Source: Escherichia coli
GTDB lineage: Bacteria; Pseudomonadota; Gammaproteobacteria; Enterobacterales; Enterobacteriaceae
Length of the DNA stretch: 64,000 nucleotides
Assembly: GCF_046105845.1 (NCBI RefSeq)
Contig: NZ_CP151004.1
Direction: 5' to 3' (one strand)
Shown: positions 52,162-52,502 of the stretch, piece by piece
How the letters are laid out: every line of letters begins with the position of its first letter
Numbering within the stretch: the first letter of the stretch is position 1
Translations under genes and position numbers: made by a program
Notes under the pieces: model-generated
The model's input: the letters and a program-made list of their open reading frames with translations, nothing else
Told to the model about the DNA's origin: nothing
The model's database searches: none

Positions 52162-52502
52162 TGGGAGTCGATTAAATTGTTATATCACTACTATGCCCTT
52201 TCCAGACGACGTATAAGAGTGCAACATGTTGAGTTTTCCGAGTGAATGGTGCATTTTATTAACCGAGCCATTTGAATCAACCAACGAAAGAAACAGACTG
52301 GAATAATAAGTCTGTATGTATTATTCATCGCAATCGTACTCTACGGTTTTATACTGCTGAAATGAGACTGCTTCCAGCGGTTGTGGATGATCCTTGGGCG
52401 ACAGTCATAGTCTGGTGTCAGGATTCACAAATGACCTGTTTCCTGACATGGATATAAACACAACATAGAGTGCGGTAGTTAATCTGAATAATCTATAGTC
52501 GG

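Follow-up and report, generated by a model that had tools for sequence, protein, structure and literature searches.

The spacer between the convergent effector genes espY5 and espX3 of Escherichia coli is largely decaying cbrC and yieH debris at an old recombination junction

The chromosomal region next to phoU varies in gene content among E. coli strains. In a study that typed 174 strains, Sankar et al. [quoted passage not shown] The passages of that paper considered here report high sequence variation in the Z locus and a relationship between Z5211 and Z5214, describe the Z genes as ORFans that lack homologues, and treat yieH as a flank belonging to the core. The locus analysed here has the same chromosomal position and the same gene cluster of ~30% GC. 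It differs from the description in those passages in that the Z locus contains debris of cbrC (yieJ) and yieH, a relic they do not mention. Moreover, the Z-type yieH is a 79%-identical allele rather than a plain core flank, and 17 of 5,426 genomes carry both bglH-yieL-yieK and the Z genes. A literature search on the genes of the locus returned no description of the cbrC', yieH' or hairpin relics, of the module structure set out below, or of a transcript here. Gene relics at island or duplication junctions are another described system with which the locus can be compared. Like them, the copies of flanking genes found here are truncated, frameshifted, internally deleted and drifting towards AT, and they lie in the orientation of the originals; their rate of evolution is neutral and they meet at a microhomology junction, with no difference in kind.

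The window, i.e. the whole 64-kb stretch of E. coli chromosome that was analysed, covers a locus where K-12 has bgl-cbrBC and other strains have the Z5211-Z5214 islet (espY4, espX3, espY5). The islet is 7.4 kb long, AT-rich, and flanked by yieK (48214–48930, + strand) and yieH (56541–57206, − strand). The K-12 order is yieH-cbrB-cbrC-yieK, with yieH, cbrB and cbrC all on one strand, versus yieK-[espY5, espX3, espY4]-yieH in the window. EspY5 corresponds to Z5214/ECs4657, EspX3 to Z5212 (ECs4654/5), and EspY4 to ECs4653 (names from PMC5931665 and PMC4048457); the cluster is the 'Z5211-Z5214 locus' of Sankar et al. (PMC2646131). The genes referred to below are:

49528–52032, + strand: espY5 (ORF1), 834 aa, stop at 52032
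52503–53690, − strand: espX3 (ORF2), 395 aa with pentapeptide repeats, stop at 52503
53978–56404, + strand: espY4
56541–57206, − strand: resident yieH, full length and annotated

The original prediction, made from the sequence of the window alone, had placed an unassigned spacer of ~340 bp at 52162–52502. A non-coding gap between the convergent ORF1 and ORF2 does exist, but its true extent is 52033–52502 (470 bp), the predicted start lying 130 bp inside it. The RefSeq records inspected contain no annotated feature in the gap. The spacer is present in 1,094 of 5,426 complete E. coli genomes; only seven of these carry an allele at least 99% identical to that of the window, and most alleles are 90–95% identical.

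The GC content is 0.402 at 52162–52502 and 0.398 over the whole 470 bp. The spacer was thus rightly described as less AT-rich than the three island genes (0.298, 0.300 and 0.309). Among 341-bp windows of the island (mean GC 0.310, sd 0.027), none that avoids the gap exceeds 0.364, which makes the gap the most GC-rich part of the islet. To call its composition 'backbone-like' was, however, an overstatement, since GC outside the island is 0.500 in the window (yieH 0.52, yieK 0.49). The two genes from which we derive most of the gap below have intermediate to high GC (cbrC 0.43–0.45, yieH 0.48–0.52), and substitutions from functional gene to relic comprise 21 GC>AT versus 8 AT>GC changes. Hence, the intermediate GC of the gap reflects source genes that drift towards AT. 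One could expect a GC-richer stretch with a long inverted repeat, such as this one, to be a fragment of a mobile or dispersed element (REP/BIME, or an IS or MITE remnant). A sensitive blastn search of the 5,426 complete genomes nevertheless placed the sequence at no more than three sites per genome, the matches listed being the spacer itself, the resident yieH region or cbrC, and in the 64-kb window the arm motif of the inverted repeat occurs only at two paralogous hairpins. We regard a mobile origin as scarcely credible.

Very probably, the gap has no function and consists of relic DNA that remained when the espY4-espX3-espY5 islet was put together within the yieH...cbrC region. On the − strand, relics make up most of it, the exception being ~130 bp at its two ends. 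The parts of the gap, together with the two related segments elsewhere in the window, are:

52033–52087, + strand: 3' flank of espY5, variable among aligned alleles (pi 0.105)
52088–52171, − strand: copy of the block that follows resident yieH; island-specific DNA that carries a long imperfect hairpin
52172–52212, − strand: yieH' relic, C-terminal end, with the stop codon (52174–52172) and roughly the last 13 codons
52213–52281, − strand: yieH' relic, codons 106–128 of a second, diverged yieH
52282–52428, − strand: cbrC' relic, codons ~50 back to ~1, with an in-frame stop and a 1-bp deletion in the window allele
52429–52445, − strand: short second cbrC segment, CAAATGA-CCTGTTTCC, ~codons 18–24; direct repeat of 52362–52378
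52446–52502, − strand: 3' flank of espX3 (pi 0.052)
48991–49037, − strand: cbrC 3'-end relic, ~codons 178–195, with a 1-bp deletion; beside yieK, marking the left island edge of this rare allele
56456–56540, − strand: resident original of the downstream block, 85 bp, with a hairpin between the convergent yieH and espY4

The original prediction had offered a decayed fragment of an ancestral gene as one reading of the spacer, and this is borne out for cbrC. Residues 12–46 of CbrC match 52395→52291 on the − strand, across an in-frame stop (tblastn, E 2e–7). At the DNA level the relic is 80% identical to K-12 cbrC over 71 nt (blastn against the 5,426 complete genomes, E 1e–7), and this similarity scores z=25.5 against shuffled sequences. 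A sensitive blastn search with the gap matched cbrC in genomes that lack the islet, with a second short match on yieH. In better-preserved alleles the protein-level match extends to residues 6–49, with E down to 6.5e–14 (allele L009). The relic also has the position and orientation of the ancestral gene, lying between yieH and yieK on the − strand, like yieH. Its reading frame is destroyed: of eight alleles tested, seven carry in-frame stops, and codons ~1–50 of 195 are left. Allele L011 keeps codons 19–42 only, without a stop inside them. Differences from K-12 cbrC, counted by hand on the alignment, fall 7/3/4 on the three codon positions. The functional gene encodes a colicin E2 tolerance protein of the PF03691 family; the relic is homologous to its N-terminal ~50 codons and cannot encode a protein.

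The short second segment at 52429–52445 matches K-12 cbrC at 15 of 17 positions (E 1.7, not significant alone). Together with 52362–52378 it forms a pair of direct repeats, and the L011 allele reads as a deletion between them. Alleles of the L011 type have also lost yieH', the hairpin and much of espY5. Comparison with K-12 cbrB and cbrC and with other genomes, proposed along with the original prediction, thus recovered cbrC but not cbrB: no cbrB remnant was found in the gap by tblastn (best E 0.64), and at the DNA level the similarity of 52396–52502 to K-12 cbrB and the spacer that follows it is not significant (z=1.8 against shuffles). Similarity to an ancestral gene was likewise sought and not found in 52033–52087, where alleles L006 and L010 have a different end of ORF1 and a 33-bp insertion. 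An 8-bp inverted repeat without a T-run (52416–52423/52441–52448) reaches into the 3' flank of espX3.

A further cbrC piece lies at the far end of the island. Residues 180–194 of CbrC match 49035→48991 (tblastn, E 5e–5), and this 3' relic together with the spacer towards yieK is ~95% identical to K-12 over 105 bp, the homology stopping at 49037. Since cbrC' is 80% identical to K-12, either the two pieces are of unlike apparent age or recombination has renewed the flank. The island is also unusual at its left edge in other respects. The window allele (L001) holds bglH-yieL-yieK plus the Z genes, a combination seen at ~46997–49527, and its junction is found in just 17 of the 5,426 complete genomes; in the usual Z-type genomes phoU directly adjoins espY5. 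A 117-bp segment (49038–49154) between the cbrC 3' relic and the start of Z-type homology occurs only in such rare bgl+Z alleles.

The piece next to cbrC' comes from yieH, a gene for a HAD-family 6-phosphogluconate phosphatase. YieH residues 106–128 match 52281→52213 with 70% identity (tblastn, E 3e–6), a match also found in alleles L002, L004, L005, L006, L009 and L014, and at the DNA level 52218–52265 is 81% identical over 48 bp to 56828–56875 of resident yieH. The C-terminal piece gives a weak tblastn match to residues 204–220 (E 1.3) and was placed by hand alignment of TCTGGAA...ATATAAC. The matching blocks are 273 bp apart in resident yieH and 32 bp apart in the spacer, which indicates an internal deletion of ~240 bp in yieH'. 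As the same locus holds an intact resident yieH, yieH' is an extra copy; homologous to codons 106–128 and the end of the gene, it cannot encode a protein. The relics as a whole are ~20–30% diverged from the functional genes at the DNA level.

The cbrC' and yieH' pieces are fused directly, at 52281/52282. The recombination seam suspected in the original prediction is therefore present, and it is common to all examined alleles that retain the stretch. These alleles have this relic and junction in common, even one whose EspX3 is only 86% identical. The junction lies within 9 nt in which cbrC (TGCGTTGAT) and yieH (TGCGTCGTC) agree at seven of nine positions, and this overlap suggests illegitimate recombination at microhomology.

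The substitutions in yieH' bear on how long the copy was functional. Differences from resident yieH are distributed 3/4/14 over codon positions, which departs from uniformity (P-value ~0.001) and from the 44% expected of a copy that had evolved neutrally ever since it arose (P-value 0.015–0.05), an argument resting on about 20 differences. The polymorphism among alleles is distributed 3/6/2, and the two distributions differ (Fisher test, P-value=0.023). With a third-position bias in the divergence that is absent from the later polymorphism, yieH' seems to have been functional and separately evolving for most of its divergence.

On the − strand, yieH' is followed by a copy of the block that follows resident yieH. 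Neither the yieH piece nor this duplicated hairpin block was among the expectations of the original prediction. Positions 52088–52185 align with 56456–56554 at 81% identity over 99 bp, spanning the yieH stop codon (blastn, E 1e–20; z=40 versus shuffles). Homology to K-12 ends exactly at the yieH stop codon. Hence, the 85-bp block is specific to this islet type, and the copy in the spacer derives from a yieH-espY junction of that type.

Both copies of the block carry a hairpin. In the spacer its outer arms are 52094–52108 and 52141–52155 and its inner stem ~52113–52117/52132–52136, which gives a 19-bp composite stem with a folding energy of –25.5 kcal/mol on the + strand and –21.4 kcal/mol on the − strand; the resident copy reaches –31 to –33 kcal/mol. 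For the resident block (pi 0.02), none of 200 shuffles folded as well on the − strand (z=–4.3). Between the paralogous copies the arms differ at one of 38 sites and the remainder at 14 of 50 (Fisher test, P-value=0.0014). All 247 stem cells of 13 sequences pair. Fifteen of the 19 stem pairs are invariant; the other four vary on one side only, always by a C→T change that yields G·U on the + strand, and no pair is altered on both sides. Among alleles, the spacer hairpin has a left arm as variable as neutral DNA (pi 0.067). The arms are the only part of the spacer that looks maintained. Like an intrinsic terminator, the hairpin sits between convergent genes in both copies (yieH/espY4 and espX3.../espY5), but its apical and internal loops are larger than canonical. 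The spacer hairpin is followed by CUUUUC on the − strand (CUUUUUC in some alleles), there is no U-tract on the + strand or at the resident copy, and a terminator consensus scan made no call for the hairpin. Since its arms look maintained, it may have retained a role in 3'-end formation for transcripts of the convergent genes espY5 and espX3, a reading we hold with moderate confidence only. The hairpin would then be the one part of the spacer likely to work today, forming or protecting the 3' ends of espY5 (+ strand) and espX3 (− strand) RNAs. If it does form the espX3 end, the espX3 3' UTR would consist of ~410 nt of gene debris.

A broader function could be imagined for the debris. The hairpin and cbrC'/yieH' together might have been co-opted as a structured 3' UTR of espX3, as the source of a 3'-UTR-derived small RNA, or as an antisense partner of the espY5 3' end, any of which would couple the two convergent effector genes. 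Such co-option would account for the preservation of the hairpin arms in both copies against ~28% divergence of their surroundings; we nonetheless give it only a slim chance. The original prediction had also listed a small RNA among its options, and a small regulatory RNA, or one processed from a 3' UTR, with effector or other genes as its targets, would suit an AT-rich islet of the H-NS type whose genes are co-induced in one transcriptome study (PMC5931665). The stable hairpin and two promoter-like hexamer pairs inside the gap point the same way. However, the Rfam 15 covariance models gave no match at E≤1 on either strand of 48500–57500, z-scores for folding lie between –0.8 and +1.4 outside the hairpin, and promoter-like sites are not enriched (8 found versus 5.4 ± 1.9 expected from shuffles). 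Gene debris moreover explains most of the sequence, alleles of the L011 type have deleted most of the spacer, and the diversity of the spacer equals the neutral yardstick described next. We consider a small RNA here very unlikely, and the option finds no support in these data.

Diversity was computed across nine alleles that differ by up to 13%. Pi is 0.064–0.078 in the relics of the gap, compared with 0.066 at third codon positions of yieH and 0.064 at those of espX3. As the relics match the third positions of neighbouring genes, they evolve neutrally. Block 52409–52495 has a lower pi (0.038) and was considered as a specially conserved element; it was rejected, since this value ranks only at the 20th percentile among island windows of 87 bp, and folding of the block gives z-scores of –0.7 and –0.4.

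Two short ORFs in the spacer could be taken for a real small protein gene. The + strand ORF at 52272–52457 (61 aa, TTG start) exists as predicted and is as unconvincing as it was judged to be: it is open only in the window and L002 alleles and meets a stop at codon 7 in seven of nine alleles. A chimeric − strand ORF of 45–49 aa, which starts in cbrC' and runs into the yieH' frame, is open in all nine alleles, and a 49-aa gene is called at the equivalent site in L014. In the window and L002 alleles, however, a frameshift turns its product into an unrelated peptide, its ATG is lost in L005, and the 3/6/2 polymorphism given above, which was counted in this frame, lacks third-position bias and so reveals no purifying selection. 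Neither ORF has a Pfam match or a RefSeq annotation, and conservation of frame and amino acid sequence across alleles, as a small protein-coding gene would have, was found for neither. That either ORF is a gene is highly improbable. The spacer is instead neutrally decaying debris of cbrC and a second yieH at an old recombination junction, a genomic fossil.

Islet assembly can be traced from the order of these pieces. On the − strand, the stop codon of espX3 is followed by ~57 bp of flank, the 17-bp cbrC-like repeat and the broken cbrC codons ~1–50, and then by yieH' codons 106–128, its last ~13 codons beyond the internal deletion, the downstream hairpin block and 55 bp of espY5 3' flank. The module [yieH' – hairpin – espY5 – espY5 upstream] is a diverged homologue of [yieH – hairpin – espY4 – espY4 upstream]. 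EspY5 and EspY4 are 31% identical over their full length, and their upstream regions share a 61-bp block of 77% identity (49376–49436 versus 53822–53882), which may be a common regulatory element of the paralogous modules. Homology of the modules implies that the spacer marks the site of an illegitimate recombination event at a short microhomology, which attached a second module copy to cbrC. The second module might have been imported from another lineage or might be a long-lived full duplicate; its yieH' would for most of its history have been a complete, functional and diverged gene that was truncated later.

The overall − strand order, yieH – hairpin – espY4 – espX3 – cbrC(1–50) / yieH'(106–end) – hairpin – espY5 – ... 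– cbrC(178–195) – yieK, is the remnant expected from duplication of a [yieH...cbrC] segment followed by deletion. A simpler course of events would be an in-situ tandem duplication of [yieH codon ~105 ... espY ... cbrC codon ~50]: yieH' would have been truncated from birth, neutral decay and very fast effector evolution would have followed, and the second copy of espX3/cbrC would have been deleted. A duplication junction gives exactly the observed cbrC(1–50)/yieH(106–end)-hairpin-espY arrangement, and the rare bgl+Z allele keeps cbrC codons ~178–195 at the far end. Furthermore, espY5 shows no purifying selection (pi 0.161/0.131/0.155 by codon position), so that with such diversity the 31% identity of the paralogues need not mean great age. 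Against this course stand the 3/4/14 distribution of yieH' differences, with the P-values given above, the lack of third-position bias in the later yieH' polymorphism, and the unlike ages of the cbrC 3' relic and cbrC', although homogenisation of the flank by recombination could explain the last. A search upstream of ORF1 for ORF2-like or other debris, a possible prediction of duplication plus deletion, found none. We treat truncation from birth as a possible but doubtful history and favour a second yieH that was truncated late.

As a side observation, the pi of espY5, equal across codon positions, is about twice the neutral yardstick. RefSeq often annotates a 5' piece of this gene, which is frameshifted, and EspY5 has no Pfam match; across E. 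coli the gene looks unconstrained or mosaic. Within the islet, conservation is highest between the divergent espX3 and espY4 (53691–53977; pi 0.017; 17 of 287 sites variable). It exceeds that of the coding sequence on either side, which suggests a constrained shared promoter or regulatory region.

Divergence at the locus reaches into yieH. Resident yieH is 78.7% identical to K-12 yieH at the nucleotide and 84.7% at the amino acid level, with differences distributed 24/21/97 over codon positions. Its first 60 nt are 93% identical and the rest 62–93% (mean about 77%), and Z-type genomes share the diverged yieH allele, being 94–98% identical among themselves. The islet is therefore part of a deeply diverged haplotype that continues into a gene regarded as core, its breakpoint lying near the 5' end of yieH. 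Divergence of cbrC' from K-12 cbrC (~20%) is comparable in magnitude.

A search with the EspX3 protein returned 63 matches, all of the source-named ones from E. coli, the most diverged being 86% and 71% identical. The 71%-identical protein belongs to a divergent form of the islet (L011 5386–6600, L015 and L016), which lacks the 5' and 3' parts of espY5, the hairpin, yieH' and part of cbrC'. In L014, espY4 is only 76% identical to that of the window at the DNA level. Together, the two observations indicate that alleles of this locus are very deeply diverged. The L011/L015/L016 type arose by secondary deletion. Among the diverged EspX3 contexts, no intermediate with less advanced decay was found, since L014 has the same relic and L015 and L016 are of the deleted type, and neither the EspX3 protein search nor a scan of a genome collection found an outside lineage with an intact version. 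The only match in the latter scan, L012 (JAIJJM010000244.1), is a 4.4-kb contig in a Collinsella sp. MAG whose EspX3 is 97% identical; it is probably E. coli contamination of the Collinsella bin and so says nothing about other species.

The spacer itself is an ordinary fossil, of modest value for the history of effector-islet assembly. For annotation it carries a warning, as the short ORFs here are artefacts of pseudogene debris. For the locus, the relics show that the Z5211-Z5214 cluster was built inside the yieH...cbrC locus; foreign 'ORFan' DNA did not cleanly replace what was there. Both EspY effector genes belong to diverged copies, two in number, of a yieH-hairpin-espY module, joined at a microhomology, and the Z haplotype, including its 79%-identical yieH allele, is far older, or more foreign, than the E. 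coli chromosome around it. Overall, these results refine the published picture of the bgl/Z locus and offer the junction and its relics as fixed markers with which the locus can be traced.
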